Source: a bacterium (GTDB taxonomy: Bacteria > Patescibacteriota > Minisyncoccia > UBA6257 > 2-01-FULL-56-20). From it: a DNA stretch of 58,920 nt. The notes beneath the pieces were generated by a model. The model had not been told where the DNA came from. It saw nothing but the letters and a program-made list of their open reading frames with translations, and made no database searches. The stretch lies in assembly GCA_027310625.1 (NCBI GenBank), contig DAIDAM010000014.1, forward strand, positions 1 through 58,920, in the 5' to 3' direction. The translations under genes and the position numbers were made by a program. Position 1 is the stretch's first letter, and each line of letters starts with the position of its first letter. Positions 4,867 through 57,080 of this stretch are shown piece after piece.

Positions 4867-5217
4867 GAATGAGTGTGAGTCCCGTAAGATGCTTTGCACT
4901 TACGGGATGAGTATGCCTCAACGATGATATCGACTGAGGCATGCCCTTCGGTTATGTTTGGCCTGCCCCGACTTCGGTCGGGGTTTGGTTTTAAAAAGGC
5001 AAATATTTTTCACAACACGCGTCGCTCATCCTGCGACTCGCTCGCTCTAGTCCTCGCCGATTGGTCGCCCAAGGCGACACCGTGCCAATCGGCTGCGGAG
5101 GTTGCTCAAGATATTTGCTTTTTTGAACTTTACGCTTGAGTATCCTATTATAGTTTTGGGCGGCCGAAGCGCACTCATTTAAACAAACATAACATTAAGG
5201 AGGTCACCTCGGCCGCT
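4867..5217 (+). other. Highly structured non-coding region (stacked hairpins); either an unassigned ncRNA or a pile-up of palindromic elements
   Basis: Hairpins: cccgtaag/cttacggg (4880-4906), tgcctca/tgaggca (4914-4941), ccccgac-ttcg-gtcgggg plus a T-run (4964-4992), gcaaatat/atatttgc enclosing gccgattgg...ccaatcggc (4999-5118), and gcggccga/tcggccgc (5159-5217). Confidence 0.4.
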
Positions 5218-5224
5218 CAATGAA

Positions 5225-5295
5225 GGTTACGAATTTACGAATCGTTACAGATATACGAATTCGTACATTCGTAAAAATCTGTAAATTCGTAACCC
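5225..5295. repeat. ttcgta/tacgaa word repeat with inverted ends GGTTACGAA...TTCGTAACC
   Basis: Sequence is ggttacgaatttacgaatcgttacagatatacgaattcgtacattcgtaaaaatctgtaaattcgtaacc, directly upstream of murB. Confidence 0.55.
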
Positions 5296-5301
5296 ACATT
5301 C

Positions 5302-7195: not shown

Positions 7196-9841
7196 ATGTC
7201 CTTTATCGGAAAAATTTTCGGCGATGCGAATGAACGTTATGTGAAGTCGCTTCATCCGGAAATTGAAAAAATAAATGTCGCGGAGAAAAAATTCGCGGCG
7301 CTTTCCAGCGAAGAACTTAAATCGTCAACCGAGGAATTCAGAAGGCGGCTGAGAGAAGGCGAGGTTTTGGACGACGTTTTACCCGACGCTTTTGCCGCGG
7401 TCCGCGAAGCGGCGAGAAGAACTCTCAGTCAACGCCCTTTTGACGTCCAGCTGTTGGGCGGGATTGTTTTGCATCGCGGCGCCGTTGCGGAAATGGCTAC
7501 GGGCGAAGGAAAAACTCTTGCCGCCGTGGCGCCTTCGTATTTGAACGCGCTTTCAGGAAACAGCGTCCATATTGTGACGGTCAACGAATATTTGGCGCGG
7601 CGCGATACCGTCTGGATGGGGCAAATTTATCACGCGCTTGGAATGAAAGTTTCCTGTCTTGTGCCGAATTCCGCCTTTATTTACGACCCCCTTTATACGC
7701 GGATAAACGCGGATTCATCTGCGCAGATCCGCGCGGATGAAAATCTGCGTGAATCCGCGCTGTTGGATCGCGAACGCGATACAACGGGAGGTTTCTTGGT
7801 TCAGCAGGAGTTTTTGAAGCCGATTTCAAGGCGCGAAGCGTACAAAACGGACATTGTTTACGGCACGAATCACGAGTTTGGTTTTGATTATCTCCGCGAC
7901 AACCTTGCTTACAGAATTGAAGATCAGGTTCAGGGAGAGCGCAATTTCGCGATAATAGACGAGGTGGACAGCATTTTGATAGATGAGGCGAGGACGCCGC
8001 TGATAATTTCTGCGCCTGATACGGGGTCAAGCGAGTTCTACAAGGTCTTTGCAAGAATTGCGGAAAAACTTTCCAAGGACGGTGATTATACGGTTGACGA
8101 GAAATTCAGAACGGTGAGCATTACGCAGGACGGGATAGAGAAGGTGGAAAAGTTAATCGGAGTGAAAAATCTTTATGCCCCGGAAAACCTGCGCCTTGTC
8201 CATTTTTTGGAGGAGAGTTTGAAAGCGAAAGCGATTTTCAGGCGCGACAAGGATTACGTCGTCAAAAACGGCGAGGTGATAATCATTGACGAGTTCACCG
8301 GGCGCATGCTTCACGGCCGCCGCTACAGCGGAGGACTGCATCAGGCGATTGAAGCGAAGGAAGGAGCGGATGTCAAAGAAGAGTCGCGCACTTACGCCAA
8401 AATTTCCATTCAGAATTATTTCCGCCTTTACAAAAAAATTTCCGGAATGACGGGAACAGCGCAAACGTCGGCGGAGGAGTTCCACAAAGTTTACAATCTT
8501 GACGTCACAAGCGTTCCGACGAATAAGCCGGTCGTAAGAACCGATATGCCGGATTTGGTTTACAAAAACGAGGAGGCGAAATGGAACGCCGTAGTGGATG
8601 AAATAAAAGAAAAACAGAAGACGGGGCAGCCGGTGTTAATCGGAACGACATCAATACAGAAAAACGAACTTCTTTCCGAAAAACTTTTGAAAGCCGGCGT
8701 GCGCCACGAAGTTTTGAACGCGAAGAACAACGAACGCGAAGGCGCGATAATAGCGCAGGCGGGGAAACCCGGCGCGGTTACGGTTGCTACGAACATGGCC
8801 GGACGCGGAGTGGACATAATCTTGGGGGGTAACCCGCAAGACCCTGAGCAAAGTCGAAGAGTTCGAGAAACAGGCGGCCTTCACGTCGTCGGCACGGAGC
8901 GTCACGAAGCGCGCCGCATAGACAATCAGCTCCGCGGGCGCTCGGGGCGGCAAGGCGACCCCGGCTCGTCGCAGTTTTTCCTTTCGTTGGAAGACGATTT
9001 GCTTCGGGTTTTCGGCGGAGAAAAAATAAAGAACATGATGGAAACACTTAAAGTTCCCGAAGACCAGCCGATTCAAGCGGGATTTTTGACGAAAATCATC
9101 GCACAAGCGCAGGCAAAAGTGGAAGGTTTCAATTTTGATTTGCGAAAACGTCTTTTGGAATATGATGATGTTTTGAACCGCCAGCGAACGAGCATTTATG
9201 GAGAACGCCAGAAGATTCTCGGAAGTTTAAACAAAGAAGACATAGCAAATCTTATTTTCGAAGCCGCGGGGGGTTTTTTGAAGAACAATTTTTTCGGGGA
9301 GGATTTGCCCTTTCCGGAGGCGCGCGAGGGCGATTTGCGGAAAATTCTTATTGATTGCGGCGCTGCAAAAGAAAGCGACCTTCCGGAGCGGTGCGATTTT
9401 GAAAACGTTTCCGAGCTTTTGAAAAAAAGAAGCGCGGATTCCGCCGAGAATCCGTTTTCCAGAAATTATCTTATAAACGTTTTAGATATGTTATGGATGA
9501 ACCATCTTGAGGATTTGGAAGCGCTCGGCGAGTCGGTTGGGCTTCGCGCCTACGGACAAAGAGACCCCGTCGTTGAGTATCGCCACGAAGCCCATCGTCT
9601 TTTCAAAAGTTTCTGGAACAATTTCAACGAGTGGGTGTTTATGAACGTATTCAAGTTAGCGACCAGCGACAAGCGACAAGCGACAAGCGAAACCAATCAG
9701 CAGGCAACGCGCGTTTCTAATGGCTATACTCTAAGTTCTAACGGCCCTAGAGTAAAAATCGGCCGGAACGACCCCTGCCCGTGCGGAGCAAAATACGAGG
9801 ACGGGCGTCCCATTAAATATAAGAAGTGTCATGGGAAATGA
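7196..9841 (+). CDS. secA: preprotein translocase ATPase SecA
   Basis: Motifs MATGEGKTL, DEVDSILIDEARTPLIIS and TNMAGRGVDI, plus the C-terminal zinc motif CPCGAKYEDGRPIKYKKCHG. Confidence 0.97.
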   Translation: MSFIGKIFGDANERYVKSLHPEIEKINVAEKKFAALSSEELKSSTEEFRRRLREGEVLDDVLPDAFAAVREAARRTLSQRPFDVQLLGGIVLHRGAVAEMATGEGKTLAAVAPSYLNALSGNSVHIVTVNEYLARRDTVWMGQIYHALGMKVSCLVPNSAFIYDPLYTRINADSSAQIRADENLRESALLDRERDTTGGFLVQQEFLKPISRREAYKTDIVYGTNHEFGFDYLRDNLAYRIEDQVQGERNFAIIDEVDSILIDEARTPLIISAPDTGSSEFYKVFARIAEKLSKDGDYTVDEKFRTVSITQDGIEKVEKLIGVKNLYAPENLRLVHFLEESLKAKAIFRRDKDYVVKNGEVIIIDEFTGRMLHGRRYSGGLHQAIEAKEGADVKEESRTYAKISIQNYFRLYKKISGMTGTAQTSAEEFHKVYNLDVTSVPTNKPVVRTDMPDLVYKNEEAKWNAVVDEIKEKQKTGQPVLIGTTSIQKNELLSEKLLKAGVRHEVLNAKNNEREGAIIAQAGKPGAVTVATNMAGRGVDIILGGNPQDPEQSRRVRETGGLHVVGTERHEARRIDNQLRGRSGRQGDPGSSQFFLSLEDDLLRVFGGEKIKNMMETLKVPEDQPIQAGFLTKIIAQAQAKVEGFNFDLRKRLLEYDDVLNRQRTSIYGERQKILGSLNKEDIANLIFEAAGGFLKNNFFGEDLPFPEAREGDLRKILIDCGAAKESDLPERCDFENVSELLKKRSADSAENPFSRNYLINVLDMLWMNHLEDLEALGESVGLRAYGQRDPVVEYRHEAHRLFKSFWNNFNEWVFMNVFKLATSDKRQATSETNQQATRVSNGYTLSSNGPRVKIGRNDPCPCGAKYEDGRPIKYKKCHGK
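7697..7790. repeat. tccgcg/ctgcg word-repeat insert in secA
   Basis: Sequence is cgcggataaacgcggattcatctgcgcagatccgcgcggatgaaaatctgcgtgaatccgcgctg, read as RINADSSAQIRADENLRESAL. Boundaries are approximate. Confidence 0.55.
9658..9695. repeat. gcgacaa word repeat inside the secA C-terminal linker
   Basis: Sequence is agcgaccagcgacaagcgacaagcgacaagcgaaacc, read as ATSDKRQATSET. Confidence 0.55.
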
Positions 9842-10153: not shown

Positions 10154-10861
10154 ATGAAGAAAAATCAGTTATCTGACGCCGAAATCAAAAATAGAAAAAC
10201 AAGGGCTGCCGAAATAATAAAGACGCTGAAGCGGCTTTTCCCGAACACAAAAATCGCTCTCCGCTACAAAACGCCGTGGGAGCTTTTCGTCGCCGTTGTT
10301 CTTTCGGCGCAGTGCACCGACAAGAAGGTGAACGAGGTCACGGAAAAACTTTTTTCCGCCAAAGGCGCCGCGCCCGCCGTCGGGCAGGGATCCGCCTCGG
10401 GCGGAAAGAAATATAAAACTGTTGATGATTTTGCCAAAGCCGATTTGAAAGCATTGGAGCAAATAATCCGACCTACCGGCTTTTACCATAATAAAGCTAA
10501 AAATATTATCGCGGCTGCTAAAGTATTAAAAGAAAAGTTCGGCGGGAAATTGCCGAGGACAATGGCGGAAACGCTGACATTGCCGGGTGTCGGAAGAAAA
10601 TCGGCAAATGTGATTCTCGGAAACGCTTACGGCGTCATTGAAGGAATAGCGGTTGATACTCACGTCCGCCGCCTTTCGAAAAAACTCGGACTGACAAATC
10701 ACGACGACCCGGTCAAGATTGAACGGGATTTGATGGAAATTGTTCCGAAGAAAGATTGGTTCAATTTCACTTATCTGATGATTGATTACGGCAGAAAATA
10801 TTGCCCGGCTCGCCCCCACACCAAAGAACGTTGTCCTTTGTACAAATTTGAAAAACATTAA
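10154..10861 (+). CDS. nth: endonuclease III
   Basis: Has FVAVVLSAQCTD, the HhH-GPD motif LPGVGRKSANVIL and VDTHVRR. Cysteines are present in the C-terminal region. Confidence 0.9.
   Translation: MKKNQLSDAEIKNRKTRAAEIIKTLKRLFPNTKIALRYKTPWELFVAVVLSAQCTDKKVNEVTEKLFSAKGAAPAVGQGSASGGKKYKTVDDFAKADLKALEQIIRPTGFYHNKAKNIIAAAKVLKEKFGGKLPRTMAETLTLPGVGRKSANVILGNAYGVIEGIAVDTHVRRLSKKLGLTNHDDPVKIERDLMEIVPKKDWFNFTYLMIDYGRKYCPARPHTKERCPLYKFEKH
10355..10405. repeat. 51-bp TCCGCC...GGCGGA palindromic insert in nth
   Basis: Sequence is tccgccaaaggcgccgcgcccgccgtcgggcagggatccgcctcgggcgga. It spans 17 codons and is read as SAKGAAPAVGQGSASGG. Confidence 0.65.
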
Positions 10862-14209: not shown

Positions 14210-14389
14210 ATGGTTATTTCTGTCACCGCCGCATCGGGGAATTTGTACTCTTGTTCGGAGTGCGGGTTTAATTACAGAGACAAAGAAACGGCGGAGAAAT
14301 GCGAGAAGTGGTGCAAAGAACACAAAAGCTGTAACGTGGAAATAATCAAATATGCCGTCAAAGAAAGCGAGCGGGATAAAGAGAGATAA
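14210..14389 (+). CDS. 59-aa Cys-rich (zinc-ribbon-like) protein, hypothetical
   Basis: The ATG lies 2 nt after the thioredoxin stop. The sequence YSCSECGFNYRDKETAEKCEKWCKEHKSC contains CxxC and a further Cys cluster. It is below the ORF-track size cut-off and overlaps the gdh start by 38 nt. Confidence 0.45.
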   Translation: MVISVTAASGNLYSCSECGFNYRDKETAEKCEKWCKEHKSCNVEIIKYAVKESERDKER

Positions 14390-15689
14390 GTTTGGCCCCG
14401 AATATATCGTCGAAGTTTATGACCCGGCACTTGGGATGGAGGGGTTTTTAGTTATTGATAACACCGCGCTCGGCCCGGGCAAGGGCGGGATACGGATGAC
14501 TCCGGATGTGACCGCGGAGGAAATTTTCCGGCTGGCGCGAACGATGACGTGGAAAAACGCTCTTGCGGGAATTCCTTTCGGCGGCGCCAAAGCCGGAATT
14601 GTCTGGCCGCCTCGACGTACTCGAGACAGGAGAGACGGTTCGGATGTCCCTTTTAATTCGGATGGGCGCATTCGCCCGCCCGCCTTGCTTCGCAACGCGA
14701 AGCGGGCAGGCAGCGCGCTTTCGGATGCCCTGAAGAAAAAATTTATCCAAAGTTTCGCGCGGAGAATTTCCGTTTTCACGCCGAGGAAATATATTGCCGG
14801 GCCGGACGTTAATACCGGCGAACGGGAAATGAAATGGTTCGTGGAAGCGACGGGGAACTGGCGGAGCGCCACGGGCAAGCCGGCGAATGTTTGCATAGAA
14901 ACTTTCGGCAGGGGAACCGCCCGCCTTAAAGCGGGCGAGCCTCGCCCCGCCAGCTGGCGGGGCGGGAAATGCGGCATACCGCACGAATTCGGCAGCACCG
15001 GTTTCGGTGTCGTGGAATCAACCGAGGTCGCCGCCGAACTTGCCCTCCCAAGTTTCCGAAGCAGAAATTTGGGAGGGTGGGCCGGGATTCCCCTTGAAAA
15101 CGCGACCGTTGCCATTCACGGCTTCGGTAACGTCGGAACGTTTACCTATGAGTTTTTGAGAGCAAAAGGCGCGAAAGTTGTCGCGCTTGCCGACAAAAGC
15201 GGTGCCGTGTTTTCAAAAAACGGATTCGACAGAAAAACGATTGCGGAAGCGATTGCCCGAAAAAAATCTCTAACCGCCGTTTTTCCGAAGTCCAAAATAA
15301 GCGAGAAAAAATTCTGGGGTTTACCGGTGGACATACTGATTCCCGCTTCCGTTACCGACGTCATCAACGATTCCAACAAAAATTCCATCTGCGCCAAAAT
15401 CATTGTCGAAGCCGGAAATATTCCAATGAGCGAGAAAATCGAAAAAGAACTTTTCCGAAAAGGAATTTTGATCATTCCCGATTTTGTCGCCAACGCCGGC
15501 GGCGTAATTTCGTCCTACGCGGAATACCGAGGATACAATCCCAAAAAGATGTTCGATTTGGTCAGCAGAAAAATCAGGGAAGCGACGCGTCTTGTTTTGG
15601 AGCAAAGCATCAAAGAAAAAAGAAATCCCCGCGACGTCGCGATGGAAATCGCCGGTAAAAAAGTTGAAGAGAGAATGAAAAGAATATAA
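14352..15689 (+). CDS. gdh: Glu/Leu/Phe/Val dehydrogenase family enzyme (probable glutamate dehydrogenase)
   Basis: FLVIDNTALGPGKGGIRM, GGAKAGI, AGPDVNTGE and the Rossmann motif AIHGFGNVG. It is interrupted by three palindromic inserts. Confidence 0.85.
   Translation: MPSKKASGIKRDKFGPEYIVEVYDPALGMEGFLVIDNTALGPGKGGIRMTPDVTAEEIFRLARTMTWKNALAGIPFGGAKAGIVWPPRRTRDRRDGSDVPFNSDGRIRPPALLRNAKRAGSALSDALKKKFIQSFARRISVFTPRKYIAGPDVNTGEREMKWFVEATGNWRSATGKPANVCIETFGRGTARLKAGEPRPASWRGGKCGIPHEFGSTGFGVVESTEVAAELALPSFRSRNLGGWAGIPLENATVAIHGFGNVGTFTYEFLRAKGAKVVALADKSGAVFSKNGFDRKTIAEAIARKKSLTAVFPKSKISEKKFWGLPVDILIPASVTDVINDSNKNSICAKIIVEAGNIPMSEKIEKELFRKGILIIPDFVANAGGVISSYAEYRGYNPKKMFDLVSRKIREATRLVLEQSIKEKRNPRDVAMEIAGKKVEERMKRI
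14608..14725. repeat. Insert 1 in gdh (GC-rich palindromes)
   Basis: Contains ctcgacgtactcgag and cccgccttgcttcgcaacgcgaagcgggcagg, read as RRTRDRRDGSDVPFNSDGRIRPPALLRNAKRAGSALS. Boundaries are approximate. Confidence 0.55.
14910..14995. repeat. Insert 2 in gdh (two GC hairpins)
   Basis: Contains cccgccttaaagcgggc, ccccgccagctggcgggg and tgcggcataccgca, read as GTARLKAGEPRPASWRGGKCGIP. Boundaries are approximate. Confidence 0.55.
15043..15077. repeat. Insert 3 in gdh: CCCTCC..GGAGGG hairpin family
   Basis: Sequence is ccctcccaagtttccgaagcagaaatttgggaggg. It belongs to the same family as 26136-26167 and 57004-57036. Confidence 0.65.
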
Positions 15690-17825: not shown

Positions 17826-18554
17826 TTGCTTAAAAACTATTATGACTTGGTGACCAAACTCTCCCGTTCCAAAATCGATTTGCTCGCCGAATGTCCGCGC
17901 TGTTTCTGGCTGGAAATGAAAAAAGGCGTGAAGCGCCCCCAGCCGTTTCCTTACACCATCAATAACGCCGTTGATTACCTGATGAAGCAGGAGTTTGATA
18001 TTTATCGCGAGAAAGGCGAGCCGCATCCGGTGATGGTTGAAAACGAAATAAACGCCGTTCCTTATCAAAACGAAAAACTGAACGAGTGGCGGCACAATTT
18101 CACGGGCATCAGGCATACGCACGAGCCGAGCGGATTCGAAGTGTTCGGGGCGGTGGACGACATCTGGGTCAATCCCGACGGCGAACTTATTGTCGTCGAT
18201 TACAAAGCGACGGGCGCGAACGAGCACAAAGTTCAAGATTCCTACCGCCGGCAGATGGAAGTTTACCAGTGGCTTTTGCGGAAAAACGGATTCGAAGTTT
18301 CGCCCGTCGGGTATTTCGTTTTTGCGAGAGTTAATAAAGGGAATGGTTTTTCCGCCCAAGGCGGATCCGCCTCTGGCGGAGGCAGGCAAGCCGTTTTACC
18401 CTTCAATTTTTTCATTGAGTCGCACAAAGGCGACGATTCCTGGATCGAAGGGATTTTGTCGAAAGCGCGGGAAGTTTTTGATTCCGACGAAGCTCCGAAT
18501 TCCTCCGCGGCTTGTCAGTACTGCGCCTATCGCGAAGGCGCAAATGGTGTCTAA
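17826..18554 (+). CDS. PD-(D/E)XK nuclease family protein (Cas4/RecB-like fold with Cys cluster)
   Basis: An N-terminal CPRCFW, then GAVDDIW...LIVVDYKATG (the D..DxK core), YRRQMEVYQWLL, and a C-terminal CQYCAYR. Confidence 0.7.
   Translation: MLKNYYDLVTKLSRSKIDLLAECPRCFWLEMKKGVKRPQPFPYTINNAVDYLMKQEFDIYREKGEPHPVMVENEINAVPYQNEKLNEWRHNFTGIRHTHEPSGFEVFGAVDDIWVNPDGELIVVDYKATGANEHKVQDSYRRQMEVYQWLLRKNGFEVSPVGYFVFARVNKGNGFSAQGGSASGGGRQAVLPFNFFIESHKGDDSWIEGILSKAREVFDSDEAPNSSAACQYCAYREGANGV
18351..18383. repeat. 33-bp TCCGCC..GGATCC..GGCGGAGGC insert in the nuclease gene
   Basis: Sequence is tccgcccaaggcggatccgcctctggcggaggc, read as SAQGGSASGGG. Confidence 0.75.
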
Positions 18555-22920: not shown

Positions 22921-24027
22921 ATGAAACTTTCTATTGGGATTGTCGGTTTGCCGAATGTCGGCAAATCAACTTTATTTAAAGTTCTCACGAAGCAAAATAT
23001 CAACATCGCCAATTACCCGTTCGCGACCATTGACCCGAACGTCGGTGTCGTGACGGTTCCCGATGAGCGTTTGCAAAGATTAGCCGACATCAGCAAATCC
23101 AAAAAAATTATTCCGGCGGTCGTGGAATTTTACGACATCGCCGGTTTGGTCAAGGGCGCGAACAAAGGCGAGGGACTCGGCAATCAATTTTTGTCGCACA
23201 TCAGGGAAACGCAGGCGATCGTTATTGTAATTAGGATATTTAGAAATTCAGAAATTATACATGTCGAGGGAAATGTAGACCCACTGCGCGACCTCGAGAT
23301 AATAAACAGCGAGCTGGCGCTGAAGGACTTGGAAACAATAGAGAAGCGGCTGAAAAGTTTGGAAGCGGAGAAAAAAAGTGGCGACAAAAAGGCGGCAAAA
23401 AATTTCGAGATTTTGAGTAAAATCCGCGAGGAGTTGGGCGCCGGCAATTTAGCAATGAAATACTTGCCGGAATTGAACACTTCGACTGACGCTCAGGGTT
23501 TCGCGCAAGCGAAAGAAATAATTCGCGAATTGCAATTGCTGACGGCGAAAAAACAGATATACCTTTTGAACGGCTCGCCCTCCGAAATTTTTGCGGGAGC
23601 AAAAACTTGGGAGGGCAAATTCGATGCCCCGCATGCCTTACTCGACAAAATCAAGGAACTCGGTGGCGATTACATCATTGCCGATTTGGCTTCGGCTGAC
23701 GCAGTTCCGGAATTGATTAAAAAATCATACGAAACTCTAGGCTTGATAAGTTTTTTCACTACCGGCGAGGACGAAACGCGCGCCTGGACGATAGAAAAGG
23801 GAACGCTCGCGCCGCAAGCCGCCGGCGTGATTCACACCGATTTCGAAAAGAATTTCATCCGCGCCGAGGTGGTTTCTTATGAGAATTTGATGGCGGCTGC
23901 CCATTCGATAAGCTCAGGGCAAGCCCAGGGGGCTTGGAACCAGGCGAAGCAGAAAGGATTAATCCGTTTGGAGGGGAAAGAGTATGAGGTTAAAGACGGC
24001 GATGTGATGGTTATTAGACACGGGTGA
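22921..24027 (+). CDS. ychF: ribosome-binding ATPase YchF
   Basis: GIVGLPNVGKSTLF, the DIAGLVKGA motif, and a C-terminal TGS-like region ending EGKEYEVKDGDVM. The gene ends with TGA. Confidence 0.92.
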   Translation: MKLSIGIVGLPNVGKSTLFKVLTKQNINIANYPFATIDPNVGVVTVPDERLQRLADISKSKKIIPAVVEFYDIAGLVKGANKGEGLGNQFLSHIRETQAIVIVIRIFRNSEIIHVEGNVDPLRDLEIINSELALKDLETIEKRLKSLEAEKKSGDKKAAKNFEILSKIREELGAGNLAMKYLPELNTSTDAQGFAQAKEIIRELQLLTAKKQIYLLNGSPSEIFAGAKTWEGKFDAPHALLDKIKELGGDYIIADLASADAVPELIKKSYETLGLISFFTTGEDETRAWTIEKGTLAPQAAGVIHTDFEKNFIRAEVVSYENLMAAAHSISSGQAQGAWNQAKQKGLIRLEGKEYEVKDGDVMVIRHG

Positions 24028-26063: not shown

Positions 26064-26135
26064 TAAATCTGCGTAAACCCGCATACAAATCTGTATACAA
26101 ATCCGCATACAAATCTGCGCACAAATCCGCGTTTA
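26064..26135. repeat. About six tandem degenerate 12-mers (aaatcYgcRNAc)
   Basis: Sequence is aaatctgcgtaaacccgcatacaaatctgtatacaaatccgcatacaaatctgcgcacaaatccgcgttta. Confidence 0.7.
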
Positions 26136-26167
26136 CCCTTCTAAATTTCTCCGGAAATTTTGGAGGG
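26136..26167. repeat. CCCTYC..GGAGGG hairpin family
   Basis: Sequence is cccttctaaatttctccggaaattttggaggg, lying just 3' of dnaB. Confidence 0.65.
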
Positions 26168-31919: not shown

Positions 31920-33047
31920 ATGGAAAACAAAAACTCAAAAACCGCGCTGCTCGAAGCCATCAAGGACGAAATTTCCACCGTTCGTTTCCGCGAGGGCGAA
32001 ATCGTGGAAGCGGAACTGATTCGCAAAACCCCCCGCGGCGCGTTCTTCGATTTGGGCAAACTCGGCACGGGAATCGTCTACGGCGCGGAGCTCTCCAACG
32101 CCCGCGACATCGTAAAAAAATTGAACGTCGGCGACAAAGTTTCCGCGCGCGTCGAGACCATCGACGGCGAAGGCGGCTACGTCGAACTTTCGCTCGCCGA
32201 AGCCGGTAAGCAAAAACTTTGGCAACAGGCGCAGGAACTTCAGGAAAACGGGGAAGTGGTAAAGGTTAAAATAACCGGCGCGAACCAGAGCGGACTTCTC
32301 GCCGACCTGCTCGGCTTGAAGGCGTTCCTGCCGCTTTCGCAGCTCTCGCAGGAGCATTATCCAAAAACGACTCCGACCGAAGCATCGGAGCAAAAAAGTT
32401 CCGATTTCTTGAAGAATTTAATCGGGCAGGAAGTTGGCGTGAAAGTCATCGCCGTCAATCCGCGCGCGAACAAACTGATTATTTCAGAACGTGAAATTCT
32501 CGCGGCGAACGTTAAAGAACTTCTCAATGCTTACAAAGTCGGTCAGGATGTGGACGGCATCGTTTCCGGTATCGCCGATTTCGGAATTTTCGTGAGGTTC
32601 GTTGACAATCCGCAGATTGAGGGGCTCGTCCACATTTCCGAAATTGACCACCGCATTATTGACAATCCGAAAGAAGTCGTCGCCATCGACCAACCGGTGA
32701 AAGTGAGAATCATAGACATCAAAGACGGCCGGGTGTTTCTTTCCATCAAAGCGCTGAAAGAAGACCCGTGGCAGAACGTTTCGGAACGCTACAAAGCCGG
32801 ACAGGAAGTCGGCGGCAAAGTTTACAAATTCAATCCCTTCGGCGCCGTGATAGATCTTGAGGGCGGCTTTCAGGGATTGATTCACATTTCCGAATTCGGC
32901 GGCGCGGAGGAAATGAAAAAAGCGCTGATGCTGAATTCACTCTCCCAACTTTCGCCAGCCGAAAGTTCGGAGAGCAAGCTGCACAAGTTTGTGATTGATT
33001 CCGTCAAACCGGAGGAGAAGAGGATAATACTGAAGATGAAGAAGTGA
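31920..33047 (+). CDS. rpsA: 30S ribosomal protein S1 (short form)
   Basis: Repeated S1 OB-fold motifs (GEIVEAELI, GEVVKVKITG, GQDVDGIVSGIADFGIFVRF, GQEVGGKVYKFNPFGAVIDL). The ATG at 31920 is chosen because the upstream part of the track ORF has no homology. Confidence 0.85.
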   Translation: MENKNSKTALLEAIKDEISTVRFREGEIVEAELIRKTPRGAFFDLGKLGTGIVYGAELSNARDIVKKLNVGDKVSARVETIDGEGGYVELSLAEAGKQKLWQQAQELQENGEVVKVKITGANQSGLLADLLGLKAFLPLSQLSQEHYPKTTPTEASEQKSSDFLKNLIGQEVGVKVIAVNPRANKLIISEREILAANVKELLNAYKVGQDVDGIVSGIADFGIFVRFVDNPQIEGLVHISEIDHRIIDNPKEVVAIDQPVKVRIIDIKDGRVFLSIKALKEDPWQNVSERYKAGQEVGGKVYKFNPFGAVIDLEGGFQGLIHISEFGGAEEMKKALMLNSLSQLSPAESSESKLHKFVIDSVKPEEKRIILKMKK

Positions 33048-33602: not shown

Positions 33603-33703
33603 GCGAGTTTAGATTAAGAAAATAAAGGGGCGGACTAGCGTTTTCTTTTTTCGTATTTTCCGCTTAACATTGAAGTATTGAATAAAGTGAAATGGTTCAT
33701 TCG

Positions 33704-33729
33704 CTCATTCGCGCGAATGGTGGAATGAG
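33704..33729. repeat. 26-bp hairpin element CTCATTCGCGCGAATGGTGGAATGAG
   Basis: An identical 26-mer occurs at 58343-58368, and a variant at 44020-44041. Confidence 0.75.
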
Positions 33730-34576
33730 AAAAAGCAAACCAAAATACGTAATCGGTATTGATAAGGTGGGTCGTGCCGCCCCAAAAGGGCGGGCCTCTC
33801 GCCTCGCTGGAGCTAAGGCGAAGCGGACGCCCCGTAAATATGTAATTGGTATCGACGAGGTGGGGCGGGGCGCTCTCGCGGGGCCGGTGGTCGTGGCGGC
33901 GGTTTGTTTTCCGACAAAATTGAGAGTGCGGAACGCGGAACTCGGCGCGTTGAAGGATTCCAAAAAGCTTTCGCCGAAGGCGCGCGAACGCTGGCTCGAA
34001 CATTTTAAAACTGTTCCCGAAATATTATCGCGAACAGCCAGAGTTTATCCGCGAAAAATAGAAAAAATAAACATCTCGCAGGCGGCAAACCGCGCCGCAA
34101 CTTCGGCGCTGGAACGCGTCATCGAATCCGTTTTCGCCAGTAGGACAAAAAAACATTCTAACATTCTGCAGAATGTTAGAATGTTCAAATCTATGCCGGG
34201 AACAAACTATTCTAATATTCTTAAGAATATTAGAATAGATATTTTTCTTGATGGGGGATTGTATTTAACGAATAAAATTAATCCTTCGATAAACTTCCTT
34301 CGACACGGCTCAAGACAAGCAGGGCGAATGATTGTCAAAACAATCATTCGGGGCGACGAGAAAATCGCCGCCATCAAAATCGCTTCCATCATCGCCAAAG
34401 TGCAGAGGGACAAGTATATGAAAAAACTTTCCCGAAAATATCCGCGCTATGACTTTGAGATGCACAAGGGATACGGGACAAAAATGCACCGCAGGGCCAT
34501 CAGAAAACACGGGCCTAGCGAAGTTCATAGATTGACGTTCTTGAAGAAATCCCATAGAATTGCTAATAGCAAATAG
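33725..34576 (+). CDS. rnhB: ribonuclease HII
   Basis: IGIDEVGRGALAGPVV (the catalytic DE motif) and a C-terminal HKGYGTKMHRRAI. The start is uncertain (33692 or 33725). The N-terminal KYVIGID(K/E)VGR is duplicated and the gene contains two P32-type inserts. Confidence 0.85.
   Translation: MRKSKPKYVIGIDKVGRAAPKGRASRLAGAKAKRTPRKYVIGIDEVGRGALAGPVVVAAVCFPTKLRVRNAELGALKDSKKLSPKARERWLEHFKTVPEILSRTARVYPRKIEKINISQAANRAATSALERVIESVFASRTKKHSNILQNVRMFKSMPGTNYSNILKNIRIDIFLDGGLYLTNKINPSINFLRHGSRQAGRMIVKTIIRGDEKIAAIKIASIIAKVQRDKYMKKLSRKYPRYDFEMHKGYGTKMHRRAIRKHGPSEVHRLTFLKKSHRIANSK
34154..34183. repeat. P32 variant (CTGCAG centre) in frame in rnhB
   Basis: Sequence is cattctaacattctgcagaatgttagaatg, read as HSNILQNVRM. 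Confidence 0.75.
34207..34238. repeat. P32 perfect copy in frame in rnhB
   Basis: Sequence is ctattctaatattcttaagaatattagaatag, read as YSNILKNIRID. Confidence 0.85.
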
Positions 34577-40080: not shown

Positions 40081-40177
40081 AACCATAACTCGAATCTACA
40101 AATTTGCGCGAATTTGGCGAATGGTAACAGAAATTTATTCGCCATATTAGCGCGCATTTGCGATATTCGAGTTACGC
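40081..40177. repeat. ~97-bp inverted-repeat element upstream of rplJ (ends ATAACTCGAAT...ATTCGAGTTAC)
   Basis: A sister copy at 40797-40888 upstream of rplL has the same ends and a similar gcgcgaat/gcgaata interior. Confidence 0.7.
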
Positions 40178-40796: not shown

Positions 40797-40888
40797 AACC
40801 ATAACTCAAATCTACGAATGTGCGCGAATTTAGCGAATAATGTTTAAATTCGTCATATTCGCGCGAATTCGCGTAATTCGAGTTACGC
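40797..40888. repeat. ~92-bp inverted-repeat element upstream of rplL
   Basis: Sequence is aaccataactcaaatctacgaatgtgcgcgaatt...gcgcgaattcgcgtaattcgagttacgc. Confidence 0.7.
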
Positions 40889-44347: not shown

Positions 44348-45286
44348 TTATTTTCTTCGCCTTCCGTGAAAAGTTTTATGAATCTCGCGCAATTCCTTGT
44401 TGGTGAGGTGAGTGTAAATCTGCGTCGTGGAAATGTTGGAATGGCCGAGGAGCGATTGCACGGAGCGCAAATCGGCGCCGTTCATCAATAAGTCCGTCGC
44501 AAACTGATGGCGCAGCTGGTGGGGCGTAATGTGTTCTGCAATTCCCGCTTTTCTGCCGTAAAAATTCACCAGACGCTGAACGGCGCGGGGAATGATGCGA
44601 CCTATCACTTTGACTGGTCTCTTGTCGCCGGTCGCTTTGGTTAAACTCACGAACAACGCTTCGTCCGCGTCCGTCCGCTTGCCCAGATAATTTTTAATCG
44701 CTTTTTTGGCGCGGTCGGAGAGAAAAACGACGCGCAGTTTGTCGCCTTTGCCGCGGACGGTGATTTCTCCGCGAGCCAAATCAATGTAGCGGCTGAGCGA
44801 ACATAATTCCGAAATGCGGAGGCCGGTTGAAAAAAACGTTTCGAGAATCGCTTTGTCGCGGAGTGAGCGCAAATCCGAGCCGCTCGGCGCCGAAAGCAAG
44901 CGCTCAAGGTCGCCGTATTCGATTATGGAAATCTGGCGGCTCGGCGCTTTCGGCAGTTCGATTTTTTCGGCGGCGAGAGTTTCGATGTCGCGTTTGGTGA
45001 GATATTTTAAAAAATTTCTGATGGCGATGACGTAATAATTCTGCGTGATTTTTTTCAATGGACGGGCTCGCCCTCCCAAGTGTTTTTCCGAAAAATTTGG
45101 GCGGGCGAGCGCGAGGCGGAAATTTCTGACGGCGGCGTCCGTTATGTCGGAAGGAGATTTTATTTTCGCGGCGGATATGAATTCCTTCAGGTAATGCTCA
45201 TAACTTTCCCGCGTCTTCGGCGAGCGGTTTCGTTCAATTTCCAAATAATTCAAATAATCGGTTAAGAATTTTTGTATGTCAGTCAT
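44348..45286 (-). CDS. tyrosine recombinase, XerC/XerD-like
   Basis: N-terminal SAM-like domain (YLEIERNRSPKTRESYEHYL), then RDKAILETFFSTGLRISEL, HQLRHQFATDLL, and LLGHSNISTTQIYTH (the R..HxxR..Y catalytic set). Confidence 0.9.
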   Translation of the reverse strand: MTDIQKFLTDYLNYLEIERNRSPKTRESYEHYLKEFISAAKIKSPSDITDAAVRNFRLALARPNFSEKHLGGRARPLKKITQNYYVIAIRNFLKYLTKRDIETLAAEKIELPKAPSRQISIIEYGDLERLLSAPSGSDLRSLRDKAILETFFSTGLRISELCSLSRYIDLARGEITVRGKGDKLRVVFLSDRAKKAIKNYLGKRTDADEALFVSLTKATGDKRPVKVIGRIIPRAVQRLVNFYGRKAGIAEHITPHQLRHQFATDLLMNGADLRSVQSLLGHSNISTTQIYTHLTNKELREIHKTFHGRRRK

Positions 45287-53471: not shown

Positions 53472-54650
53472 ATGGGTAAAGATTACTACAAAATTCTCGG
53501 CATTGATAAAAGCGCTTCCGATGAAGAAGTAAAAAAAGCCTACCGTCGACTGGCGCATAAATACCATCCCGATAAAGCGGGCGGCAACGAAAGCAAATTC
53601 AAGGAAATAAACGAAGCGTATCAGGTGCTTTCGGACAAATCCAGGCGCGCGAATTACGACCGCTTCGGCGCGGCGGAGCCGTTCTCCGGATTCGGCGGAA
53701 AAAATCCTTTCGAGGGGTTTTCGGTTGATTTCGGGGGTTTTGGAAGCGGTTTCTCCGCCGGAGGCGGACCAGCCTCGGGCTGGGGCGGCGGGCCGGGATT
53801 CAATCAAGATTTTTCTTTTTACAACGCCAGCGACGTGAGCGACATGTTTGAAAACTTTTTTGAAGAACTCGGCGTAAAACCGCGAAGGCGAACCTACGAG
53901 CGCGGCTCCGACATAGAGGTTATTCAGGAAATAACTCTTGAAGAGGCGTTTCGCGGAACGATGCGCGACGTAAGAGTAAATCTTTTTGTCACGTGCAGCG
54001 AATGCAAGGGCAGAGGCGGCGATTTATCCGCCGGAATGAAGACATGCGAAACATGTTCGGGGAAGGGCGAAATACGCGAGAAAAGGCAGACGTTTTTCGG
54101 CAGCTTTTCGCAAATAAAAACCTGTGACAGATGCCGCGGTTCGGGAAAAATACCGAACAAAATTTGCAGAGCGTGCAGCGGCAGCGGAAGAATGCGCGGC
54201 GAAAGAAACGTCAGGATCGAAATTTTGCCCGGCGTCCAGGACAACCAAATAATAAAAGTTAAAGGAGCAGGAGAGGCGGGCGAACTCGGGACGCCCGCGG
54301 GAGATCTTTATGTGCGGTTGAAAATAGCGCCCCACTCCGTTTTTGAACGAAGAGGCGACGACCTTGTTGTAAGGAAAGAATTGAAGATAGTTGACCTTCT
54401 TCTCGGAAAGAAAATTGAAGTGCCGACGATAAGCGGCGGAAAAATTTCGGTTGAAATACCGGCTCACTTCAATTTAAGAGATGATTTGCGGATACCAGGA
54501 GAAGGAATGCCGCACCTCTCCGCCGGAGGCGGATCCGCCTTTGGCGGAGGCAACAGAGGGAACTTGCTCGTGAATTTCGTTATCAAGGCCCCGAAAAAAT
54601 TAAGCCACAAAGCGAAAAAACTTCTTGAAGAATTGGAGAAGGAAGAGTAG
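53472..54650 (+). CDS. dnaJ: molecular chaperone DnaJ
   Basis: J domain (DYYKILGI...HPDK), a G/F region, and four CxxCxGxG zinc motifs. It contains a 33-bp palindromic insert near the C-terminus. Confidence 0.95.
   Translation: MGKDYYKILGIDKSASDEEVKKAYRRLAHKYHPDKAGGNESKFKEINEAYQVLSDKSRRANYDRFGAAEPFSGFGGKNPFEGFSVDFGGFGSGFSAGGGPASGWGGGPGFNQDFSFYNASDVSDMFENFFEELGVKPRRRTYERGSDIEVIQEITLEEAFRGTMRDVRVNLFVTCSECKGRGGDLSAGMKTCETCSGKGEIREKRQTFFGSFSQIKTCDRCRGSGKIPNKICRACSGSGRMRGERNVRIEILPGVQDNQIIKVKGAGEAGELGTPAGDLYVRLKIAPHSVFERRGDDLVVRKELKIVDLLLGKKIEVPTISGGKISVEIPAHFNLRDDLRIPGEGMPHLSAGGGSAFGGGNRGNLLVNFVIKAPKKLSHKAKKLLEELEKEE
54519..54551. repeat. 33-bp TCCGCC..GGATCC..GGCGGAGGC insert in dnaJ
   Basis: Sequence is tccgccggaggcggatccgcctttggcggaggc, read as SAGGGSAFGGG. 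Confidence 0.75.
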
Positions 54651-55092: not shown

Positions 55093-55758
55093 ATGGTACG
55101 AGGCGACATTTTGCTTATCTTGGATCCAAGGGTTCTCGCCGTTCCCGTCGAAGACAACGGAGATTTACTGGTCGACCTGAGAGATTTAAAAGAACTGTTG
55201 GTTGATAACAGAAAGAGCAAGGCCTCCAATTCTTTTTCTTACATACGCCAATCCGTCGCATCGAAACTTCTCGAAGCTCAGCGAGCATTGCCAAAGAACA
55301 TGCGCTTGCTAATCATCGAGGGGCACCGGTCGCTTTCCCTGCAAAAACAGTATTTCGACGATTACTCTGATGAACTTAAGAAATTACATTCGGAGTGGTC
55401 GGCTGAAAAAATATATCAAGAAGCAAGTAAGTATGTCGCTTCTCCGGCTATCAATCCGCCCCACTCTACGGGAGGCGCTGTTGATTTGACTCTTGTTGAT
55501 GAAACCGGAAAAGAATTGGATATGGGGACTCGGGTTAACGCCGACCCGGAGGAAAGTCGGAACGCCTGTTTCACTTACGCGGAAAATATTTCGGAAAATG
55601 CGAAAAAAAATCGTAAGATTCTAAATGTCATTATGTCCCGGAACGGATTCGTTAATTATCCAACCGAATGGTGGCACTGGTCCTATGGCGACAGGTATTG
55701 GGCATACAATCAAAATAAGTCGCACGCGATCTTTGACTCGGTGGAAACGCCGCAATAA
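55093..55758 (+). CDS. ddpX: D-alanyl-D-alanine dipeptidase (VanX/DdpX, peptidase M15D)
   Basis: EGHRS, SPHSTGGAVDL (the SxHxxGxAxD motif) and EWWHWSYGD. Confidence 0.85.
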   Translation: MVRGDILLILDPRVLAVPVEDNGDLLVDLRDLKELLVDNRKSKASNSFSYIRQSVASKLLEAQRALPKNMRLLIIEGHRSLSLQKQYFDDYSDELKKLHSEWSAEKIYQEASKYVASPAINPPHSTGGAVDLTLVDETGKELDMGTRVNADPEESRNACFTYAENISENAKKNRKILNVIMSRNGFVNYPTEWWHWSYGDRYWAYNQNKSHAIFDSVETPQ

Positions 55759-55765
55759 TAACTCC

Positions 55766-56653
55766 ATGAAAATACTGATCATTACGGGCGGATCCTCGTC
55801 GGAAAGAAAAATATCTCTAATCTCGGCTCGCGCCGTTAAGAATGCACTGGAAACCAAAGGCCATGATGCGGTTTTGTTCGATTTTAAAAAAGGTTATCCG
55901 GCTATGAAAACTCTTTTAAAAGAATTTGAAATGGTATTTCCAGTAATGCACGGCAAGGAAGGCGAGGATGGAAACTTGTACCGCTTCCTGCGCTCGTTAA
56001 AAAAGCCCTATATTGGTTCCCACCCCGAAGGCGCTAAAGTAGCTTTCAACAAAATCCTCTTCAAAAGATATTGCGGCAGCAAACATATTCCTACGGCGCA
56101 TTGGAAAATCATTAAAACTAAAGGGGATATTATCCGATTCGGTTTCCCGTGCGTTCTTAAAGCCGCTTACGGTGGTTCATCGCACGAGGTGGACGTGCTG
56201 CATTCGAAAAAAGAACTTTCGAGAGCGCAGGTAAAAAAGATACTGGCTCTTCCTCATAGATGTTATGCGGAAAAACTTATCAAGGGTCCTGAAATAACTG
56301 CCGGCGTCCTCCATGGTAAAACGCTTCCGATTGTTGAAATTGTCCCGCCCAAAGGAGGATGGTTTAATTACAAAAATAAATATTCCGGTGAATCTAAAGA
56401 AATTCCCTTTGCGCCCTCGGTGGATAAAAAGGTTCAAAAGCGCGCGCAAAAAATTGCCCTGCGCATTCATAAAGACCTCGACCTCGGCAGCTACTCCCGG
56501 GCCGATTTCATTGTCGAAAACGGCATCCCTTATATTCTTGAAATCAATACGCCGGGAGGCGTAGGGCTCACGTCGGAGAGTTTGCTCCCCAAAGCCGCGA
56601 AGGCAGTGGGTATCACGTTTGAAGAATTAGTGGAGAGGATGCTTGAGCCATAA
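55766..56653 (+). CDS. ddl: D-alanine--D-alanine ligase
   Basis: MKILIITGGSSSERKISL, HGKEGEDG, an ATP-grasp core, NYKNKYSG (the Lys-Tyr pair retained in the omega loop) and ILEINTPGG. Confidence 0.9.
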   Translation: MKILIITGGSSSERKISLISARAVKNALETKGHDAVLFDFKKGYPAMKTLLKEFEMVFPVMHGKEGEDGNLYRFLRSLKKPYIGSHPEGAKVAFNKILFKRYCGSKHIPTAHWKIIKTKGDIIRFGFPCVLKAAYGGSSHEVDVLHSKKELSRAQVKKILALPHRCYAEKLIKGPEITAGVLHGKTLPIVEIVPPKGGWFNYKNKYSGESKEIPFAPSVDKKVQKRAQKIALRIHKDLDLGSYSRADFIVENGIPYILEINTPGGVGLTSESLLPKAAKAVGITFEELVERMLEP

Positions 56654-57003: not shown

Positions 57004-57036
57004 CCCTCCTAAATTTCTTTCAGAAATTTTGGAGGG
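57004..57036. repeat. CCCTCC..GGAGGG hairpin family
   Basis: Sequence is ccctcctaaatttctttcagaaattttggaggg. It is followed at 57037-57080 by ctgcgt/cagcgt/ccgcat word repeats. Confidence 0.65.
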
Positions 57037-57080
57037 TAAATCTGCGTCAGTCAGCGTTAAGTCAGCGTAAGTCCGCATAA

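Follow-up and report, generated by a model that had tools for sequence, protein, structure and literature searches.

GC-rich hairpin inserts in a Patescibacteria dehydrogenase gene and their dispersed relatives

Three extra blocks in an ELFV dehydrogenase gene

The window analysed here is a 58.9-kb stretch, 47% GC, of the genome of an uncultured, ultra-small bacterium of the Patescibacteria (candidate phyla radiation, CPR; Parcubacteria/Paceibacteria-like) from a mine-drainage metagenome, and its subject of interest is a gene for a Glu/Leu/Phe/Val (ELFV) dehydrogenase of a short CPR subfamily that is interrupted by three GC-rich blocks carrying hairpins (Table 1). The open reading frame (ORF) matches PF02812 at 3e-26 and PF00208 at 3e-42 in Pfam, both ELFV domains (the N-terminal dimerisation and substrate domain and the Rossmann NAD(P) domain) are present, and the best matches in the PDB are hexameric glutamate dehydrogenases (GDHs). 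Among 119 close homologs the window protein is the longest, with 445 aa against a median of 383 aa. A first-pass annotation, made from the sequence without database searches, had reported that the catalytic motifs are retained, and the alignment confirms it: K44, K68, K80, D152 and G257-G262 are invariant in the 119 homologs, window included, and the catalytic and substrate lysines and the glycine-rich motifs (KGG, WKN, GGAK, GPDVNT, GFGNVG) are all kept.

Alignment to the GDH of T. thermophilus and to the 119 CPR homologs places extra sequence at exactly three sites. Site 1 follows GGAKAGIVW-P, where the window has a loop of 43 residues against a base loop of 8 and 20 of the 119 homologs carry an insert; site 2 lies between Cys181 and Cys207 (25 residues against 10; inserts in 33/119); and site 3 separates a helix from the GFGNVG strand (21 residues against 8), with an insert in the window alone (1/119). 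The inserts at these three sites are real, and the earlier description of a gene intact apart from three palindromic blocks, inserted separately and in frame, is borne out by the PDB structures, the homologs and folding; the three blocks stand as first proposed, while their exact spans have been revised (Table 1) and the gain in length is about 65-70 residues rather than ~80. Inserts at sites 1 and 2 recur in the subfamily, that at site 3 does not, and most homologs are free of inserts. Each insert (105 nt net for block 1, 45 nt for block 2 and 39 nt for block 3) is a multiple of three and stop-free in frame, with a GC content of 56-78% against 47% for the window. Three of the 13 strict GC-rich hairpins of the whole window (stem >= 7, loop 3-7, stem GC >= 0.7) fall within this 1.3-kb gene, where ~0.3 would be expected. 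When the blocks were folded as DNA and compared with 200 shuffles, none of the shuffles equalled block 2 (z = -4.06) or block 3 (z = -4.71); block 1 as a whole was not exceptional (z = -0.95), and its core at 14652-14711 reached z = -2.2. The palindromes as such are real.

Block 1 is composite. It holds a perfect palindrome that is single-copy in the metagenome and, further on, a dispersed part made of a small hairpin and the b1 element. Over the dispersed part the word depth rises about 10-fold, from 59 to about 680 in metagenome run X1 and from 41 to about 520 in run X2 (X1-X4 are metagenome runs), and numerous other contigs of the source runs match it with <= 2 mismatches and have unrelated flanks. 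Direct repeats of TTCGGATG flank the inserted modules in an 'X-hairpin-X' layout that is also seen around other copies; we interpret these repeats as putative target duplications, and block 1 alone probably represents two or three invasions. Close-strain contigs in runs X3 and X4 join 14607 to 14730 through GTGGCGGCCCGCCGTTG, 17 nt that replace the 122 nt of block 1, which leaves an allele shorter by 105 nt, or 35 codons, in frame and identical downstream through blocks 2 and 3. Block 1 is thus present in some close strains and absent from others, and is therefore a recent, polymorphic feature. We considered an assembly artefact at the block-1 repeat, where Logan contigs break, and rejected it: unique insert sequence runs into the gene on both sides, depth is 59 on each side, the shared core is ~48 nt long and the junction is in frame. 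No further copies of block 1 were found in the window.

Block 2 is a double hairpin. One palindrome that had been counted with it, tgcggcataccgca, is native conserved coding sequence (K-C-G-I-P-H) that is present in insert-free homologs, and the residues C207, G208, P210 and H211 encoded there are invariant. Around site 2, Cys181, Cys207 and His211 (C...CGIPHE; window 14892-14985, residues 181-211) are invariant in the CPR subfamily, and some homologs (L049, L050, L068; L-numbers denote the CPR loci or contigs used for comparison) add a second Cys pair (GDCEGGICRKCG). From its sequence this Cys/His set may be a metal-binding knuckle; to our knowledge, no knuckle of this kind has been noted for classical GDHs.

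Block 3 is the cleanest of the inserts, with GCC at each junction and an empty site (gaactt/gccggg, that is ctt/gcc) in all eight relatives aligned at the DNA level. The family to which it belongs has the pattern CCCTCCnAAnTTT...AAAnTTnGGAGGG, and the window holds at least six copies of it. The first-pass annotation had taken this family to be otherwise intergenic, which it is not: 4/6 copies lie inside ORFs, among them those of YchF, ribosomal protein S1 and a Xer-type recombinase, and the recombinase copy is read as RPNFSEKHLGG in the same frame as in the dehydrogenase. Another contig of the source runs carries a near-identical copy covering 15039-15079 at equal depth and is thus a second copy in the same genome, and relatives of the element with compensated arms occur in the CPR loci L009, L115 and L141.

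Table 1. Positions of the dehydrogenase gene, its inserts and related hairpins in the window (pLDDT, predicted local distance difference test score)
Feature	Position	Strand	Basis
ELFV dehydrogenase, short CPR subfamily, intact	14352..15689	+	Pfam, PDB matches, 119 homologs, AlphaFold, Foldseek
Block 1, composite 122-nt insert after Trp85-Pro86, encoding PRRTRDRRDGSDVPFNSDGRIRPPALLRNAKRAGSALSDA	14608..14729	+	alignments, empty-site contigs, pLDDT
Perfect 15-nt palindrome CTCGACGTACTCGAG in block 1, single-copy	14611..14625		sequence, fold, metagenome depth not raised
TTCGGATG, native Gly-Ser-Asp codons, copy 1	14639..14646	+	copies 2 and 3 at 14657-14664 and 14720-14727
Dispersed-repeat part of block 1: small hairpin GGGCGCATTCGCCC, then b1 element	14652..14711		word depth, shared contigs
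Small hairpin inside block 1	14664-14677		
b1 element CCCGCCCGCCTTGCTTCGCAACGCGAAGCGGGCAGG, ~36-nt imperfect hairpin	14675..14710		29-mer in 71 metagenome contigs
Block 2, 45-nt insert encoding TARLKAGEPRPASWR; double hairpin A 14918-14937, B 14943-14964	14916..14960	+	hairpins, DNA folding
tgcggcataccgca, native conserved coding sequence, no insert	14970..14983	+	in insert-free homologs
Block 3, clean 39-nt insert encoding ALPSFRSRNLGGW; 15-bp-stem hairpin 15043-15077	15042..15080	+	DNA folding
Block-3 family copy in YchF GTPase gene	23578..23615		sequence, Pfam
Block-3 family copy, intergenic	26136..26167		
Block-3 family variant with arms CTCTCC/GGAGAG, in ribosomal protein S1 (C-terminal tail)	32940..32974		
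Block-3 family copy in Xer-type tyrosine recombinase gene (minus strand)	45071..45105		
Block-3 family copy, intergenic	57004..57036		
30-nt double hairpin TCCGCCnnnGGCGGAnnnGCCnnnGGCnG, second cross-genome family, in DnaJ	54519..54548		
30-nt double hairpin copy in DnaJ	53754-53782		
30-nt double hairpin copy in PD-(D/E)XK nuclease	18351-18380		
30-nt double hairpin with nested GC hairpin (CCGCGCCCGCCGTCGGGCAGG), in HhH-GPD glycosylase	10352-10408		

Hairpin copies in other genes and genomes

To follow b1 beyond the window, the exact 29-mer CCGCCCGCCTTGCTTCGCAACGCGAAGCG was scanned in public metagenome contigs, which returned 71 contigs from many metagenomes and habitats and 48 distinct contexts. 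Similarity among these contigs stops at the borders of the ~36-nt unit. Proteins like those of named Patescibacteria loci are encoded on 40 of the 71 (E <= 1e-20, about 25-80% identity), and the NusB-RNase III-SMC gene order of the window recurs in one of them. None of the six frames of the element holds a stop codon, and the copies within long ORFs, 23 of the 71, occupy every frame and either orientation. The hairpin plus flanking 7-mer repeats is found at the same tsaD loop in three independent contigs (L100, L104, L131), and the hairpin also sits in the RNase HII gene of a relative of the window genome (L117/L140). Copies are often flanked by direct repeats of 7-14 nt or nested in the loop of another hairpin; a C or CC precedes them and a Y follows, and beyond this no consistent target motif or fixed target-site duplication was found at the b1 contexts. 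As further features of its surroundings, AT-rich 7-mer repeats adjoin b1 copies in L093, L100, L117, L120 and L131, b1-type hairpins occur in tandem arrays of two or three, some with AT-rich spacers (L143 ~8250-8380, L097, L113), and b1 is nested in the second loop of double hairpins in L094, L109, L110, L128, L141 and L153.

A second family that crosses genomes is the 30-nt double hairpin TCCGCCnnnGGCGGAnnnGCCnnnGGCnG, which has four copies in the window (Table 1), is 30/30 identical in the dehydrogenase genes of L002 and L004, themselves diverged from each other, and also occurs in spacers and other genes of five further loci. Within the window, GC-rich hairpin blocks interrupt the genes for GlmS, MurB, a YfiH-like protein, RNase HII, GrpE, DnaK, DnaJ and a class-II aldolase. 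At the N-terminus of RNase HII (33692-33860), ~33 nt of native coding sequence (KYVIGIDxVGR) are duplicated on either side of a ~60-nt GC-rich hairpin block, and the upstream copy has lost the catalytic Glu; judged by its layout, this resembles a long target duplication that arose when the block inserted. Flanking direct repeats range from 0-3 nt (sites 1, 3 and 4, the last an insertion site of relatives described below) through 7-14 nt (b1 contexts) to ~33 nt (RNase HII). Hairpin insertion is not peculiar to one gene; it is genome-wide and extends to many related CPR genomes.

In the dehydrogenase itself, sites 1 and 2 receive inserts of differing sequence in many CPR lineages and are recurrent insertion hot spots across the subfamily. 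The 30-nt double hairpin of relatives at "site 4" has, like block 3, a clean empty site in the DNA alignment. On a neighbour-joining tree, carriers of block 2, of the site-4 double hairpin and of a 30-nt site-1 hairpin are scattered among non-carriers, and therefore the same loops have been either repeatedly hit or repeatedly cleaned out.

Such repeated hits raise the possibility that the hairpins arose where they are found, through template switching that forms palindromes, or through slippage, at fragile sites coding for loops, with the likeness between copies due to convergence and no movement at all. The different sequences at sites 1 and 2, a tandem duplication in L007, the variable length of the flanking direct repeats and the confinement of block 2 to the dehydrogenase gene would all fit local origin. 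However, the exact 29-36-nt core of block 1 in 48 unrelated contexts excludes convergence, a near-identical copy of block 3 stands at another place in the same genome, and several genomes have the 30-nt double hairpin in genes unrelated to one another. For blocks 1 and 3, which are dispersed and multi-copy, local origin is already refuted by these comparisons; as an account of the inserts in general we regard it as improbable.

Fate of the enzyme and nature of the inserts

Does the enzyme survive its inserts? An AlphaFold model of the window dehydrogenase, built on 119 sequences, has a pLDDT of 86 and a predicted TM-score (pTM) of 0.84, with the core above 90 and values below 50 only at the N-terminus and within the three blocks (block 1: residues 94-122). 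In Foldseek the model superposes on solved GDH structures at TM-scores of 0.75-0.82 and a root-mean-square deviation of about 2.5 Å. The inserts, according to the model, sit in loops and form disordered, low-confidence parts of a confident GDH fold. The ratio of nonsynonymous to synonymous substitution rates (dN/dS) between the window gene and its relatives is 0.05-0.10, no higher than between insert-free genes, and frame-disrupted copies, which would have spoken for plain pseudogenisation, were sought among 82 related dehydrogenase genes and none was found; all are intact, insert carriers included. The dehydrogenase is intact and under purifying selection, and the suggestion of the first-pass annotation that the enzyme tolerates loop insertions is the one that these data, together with the invariant residues, favour.

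The same annotation had also raised silent inactivation without frame disruption, that is, an early pseudogene. One might point to the window enzyme bearing the largest insert load among the 119 homologs, and to site 1 lying only ~6 residues past the catalytic-lysine strand. Yet all invariant and nearly invariant residues are kept, dN/dS is that of insert-free pairs, the inserts are all in frame and stop-free, insert-carrying relatives are intact too and the core fold is predicted with confidence, so we hold ongoing inactivation to be highly improbable.

It is also conceivable that the inserts are removed after transcription or skipped in translation, as introns, inteins or bypass elements are. 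GC-rich hairpin inserts that ribosomes skip do occur in a yeast mitochondrion. However, removal would not need inserts that are multiples of three and open in frame, as all those examined here are; group I or II introns and inteins are much longer than the 30-120 nt seen here; Rfam gave no intron match in the dehydrogenase gene; and the analogous mitochondrial hairpin elements remain in transcripts (PMC2800124). Because the inserts are multiples of three and stop-free, post-transcriptional removal is unnecessary, and of all the explanations weighed here we give it the least credence.

The reading that we favour instead, with a probability of about 0.72, is that miniature GC-rich hairpin DNA of ~30-60 nt, dispersed in Patescibacteria and translated where it lies in frame, has entered the dehydrogenase gene on at least three occasions. 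Hairpin elements would enter genes and spacers alike, and genic copies would survive selection only if they are in frame, stop-free and placed in solvent-exposed loops. The survivors would then be transcribed and translated as short disordered loops rich in Arg, Gly, Pro and Ala, and the enzyme would still work. Hairpins would be tolerated in genes because GC-rich palindromes are nearly stop-free in six frames and encode small or charged residues. Their stems stay paired over the long term, through selection or through arm-to-arm correction. Flanking repeats that differ in length, and hairpins that often sit within the loops of others, suggest that insertion is structure-directed or of a template-switch type rather than a classical fixed-length transposase cut. 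The elements would presumably be selfish rather than useful and would spread as DNA.

Several points weigh against invasion by mobile hairpin DNA. Neither a transposase, nor a REP-associated tyrosine transposase (RAYT; REP, repetitive extragenic palindromic sequence), nor any other mobilising gene was detected by Pfam among the ~50-55 genes of the window, and neither terminal repeats of a consistent kind nor a target duplication of fixed length turned up. For block 2 no other copy was found in the rest of the window, among CPR loci totalling 1.16 Mb or, at 80% likeness, in the source metagenome; block 2 is single-copy, and therefore its mobility is deduced from architecture only. We infer translation of the inserts because they are in frame and stop-free; RNA runs were sought for the window gene, the L003 dehydrogenase gene and the b1-bearing tsaD copy and none were found. 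The fold model covers the single chain. Finally, block 2 and the 30-nt double hairpin are far more conserved than saturated synonymous sites and their stems are compensated, which is unexpected for a purely selfish, decaying insert and could reflect a function at the nucleic-acid level.

Taken further, this last point would make the hairpins selected functional nucleic-acid elements (mRNA-stabilising or pausing structures, protein-binding sites, DNA-uptake or recombination signals) that are accommodated in coding loops. Block 2 is common to the window, L002 and L003 at the DNA level and to about 8% of relatives at the protein level, and the first three sequences show 1-4 differences in its 51 nt, whereas the remainder of the gene diverges by 23-27% (P 2e-5 to 7e-4) and has saturated synonymous sites (proportion of synonymous differences, pS, 0.63-0.73). 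Gene conversion was considered as the cause of this conservation and rejected, as synonymous differences return within a few bases of the hairpins. In L154 and L156, which are more distant carriers, the arms of block 2 show paired changes (CGCCCCGCC/GGCGGGGCG to CGCCACGCC/GGCGTGGCG), and extra hairpins have been gained between or inside its two hairpins. The site-1 hairpin shows modest covariation, with 87% of cells paired, 3/7 pairs doubly changed and a score of 0.26 against 0.16 in shuffled alignments (4/500 shuffles reach it). The complete identity of the 30-nt double hairpin in L002 and L004, and of the b1 29-mer in very divergent genomes and habitats, would also be expected of functional elements. 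On the other side, copies turn up in spacers as well as unrelated genes, in either orientation and six frames; their distribution over the gene tree is patchy, and close strains differ in whether they carry them; the majority of homologs have no insert at all; and no Rfam family matches them. Arm-to-arm correction of quasi-palindromes, moreover, can yield paired changes without selection. We therefore consider selected function unlikely, if deserving of more attention than the other alternatives.

Dispersal of miniature hairpins, our preferred reading, can be extended to a wider proposal, which we find rather doubtful: a Patescibacteria-wide family of nested GC-rich mini-hairpins that would move within and between genomes in a structure-directed manner, prefer hairpin loops and a few sites that encode loops of conserved proteins, produce target duplications that vary in length and have its stems actively maintained. 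If this were true, such a family would be a major undescribed source of lineage-specific insertions in CPR proteins. These proteins are full of unexplained short insertions that hamper annotation, alignment, phylogeny and structure prediction, and if many of them came from a few mobile hairpin families they could be recognised and masked and could serve to trace recent gene flow among uncultured lineages. The inserts are also a natural experiment on loops that tolerate 10-40 extra disordered residues. The 36-nt hairpin that is exact across distant genomes, the openness of all six frames and the nesting in hairpin loops are pointers to a novel mechanism of mobilisation or maintenance. The chief value of the dehydrogenase case is as an entry point to this lineage-wide phenomenon.

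Known systems and further palindromes

In the literature searched we found no description of such elements in CPR or Patescibacteria, and a lineage-wide habit of intragenic hairpins in this group is apparently undescribed, though it may be noted elsewhere. The closest analogue is the Rickettsia palindromic elements (RPEs; Ogata et al. 2000), which are known as in-frame insertions in genes (PMC10969869). RPEs too are dispersed palindromes that lie in frame in unrelated housekeeping genes of a reduced-genome bacterium, have copies in spacers and add peptide segments compatible with the fold of the host protein. Here, blocks 1 and 3 are palindromic, dispersed and multi-copy as RPEs are, whereas block 2 is single-copy, and insertion is in frame and compatible with the predicted fold for all three. 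Unlike RPEs, which are about 100-150 bp long, restricted to Rickettsia and for the most part passed on vertically at fixed sites, the present elements are simple, double or nested hairpins of 30-60 nt in Patescibacteria, one of which is identical across very divergent genomes, and the same protein loops are hit repeatedly. Size and taxon set the two apart: the CPR hairpins work like RPEs without belonging to the ~100-150-bp Rickettsia family.

The hairpin and double-hairpin elements or GC clusters of mitochondria (PMC2800124) are likewise GC-rich single, double or multiple hairpins in an AT-richer compact genome, tandem or nested, with conserved stems and variable loops, and sometimes occupy variable regions of protein or rRNA genes, where they are kept in the transcript. 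Single to multiple, tandem and nested GC-rich hairpins are what we see as well, in free-living or episymbiotic bacteria rather than organelles, and shared over many genomes and habitats. REP sequences and bacterial interspersed mosaic elements (BIMEs), which are mobilised by RAYT (Y1) transposases, resemble the CPR hairpins as imperfect palindromes of 20-40 nt that are multi-copy and often paired. REPs, however, are extragenic by definition, have a GTAG-type head and are accompanied by a RAYT gene, whereas here 23/71 b1 copies and 4/6 block-3 family copies lie in ORFs, the head is missing, and no Y1 (RAYT) transposase gene is among the window genes, which cover 59 kb of the genome. MITEs (miniature transposable elements with inverted repeats) such as Correia, ERIC and Nezha share the non-autonomous, inverted-repeat, dispersed character and are sometimes fused to ORFs in frame. 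In contrast to MITEs, which are usually 50-500 bp long with the terminal inverted repeats of a parent insertion sequence (IS) and target duplications of fixed length, the CPR hairpins are units of 30-40 nt with flanking repeats that vary from 3 to about 33 nt; we found no consistent terminal repeats or fixed duplications, and no IS in the window.

Searched against Rfam at gathering score, the whole window yields two tRNAs only, and a permissive search of the dehydrogenase gene gave sub-threshold noise only. The TIGR stem-loop arrays of CPR were also considered and set aside, since arrays and box C/D-like motifs are both lacking here and repeats, not spacers, make up the flanks.

The window also contains palindromes of another kind. 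The AT-rich palindrome ATCACAATTGTGAT has six copies (19059, 19999, 22855, 24070, 41438, 42941) where zero are expected by chance, five of which (I3-I5, I8, I22) each lie within a longer palindrome of ~40 nt; from its spacing it looks like a shared, putative operator or promoter motif. A second AT-rich palindrome, TTCTAATATTCTTAAGAATATTAGAA, has seven copies (11700, 12363, 13262, 13562, 18582, 34210, 43924), again with zero expected by chance, and these are mostly intergenic in appearance. Islands of oligomer repeats with CAAATCYGYRYA-like or AGTCAGCGT-like units adjoin hairpins at 26080-26135, 57037-57075, 5156-5300, 40099-40160 and 40815-40871. Towards the end of the window, the ORFs for a VanY/M15 D-Ala-D-Ala peptidase (55093-55758) and a D-Ala-D-Ala ligase (55625-56653) overlap by ~130 nt when the first start is called, and the start of the ligase probably lies further downstream.

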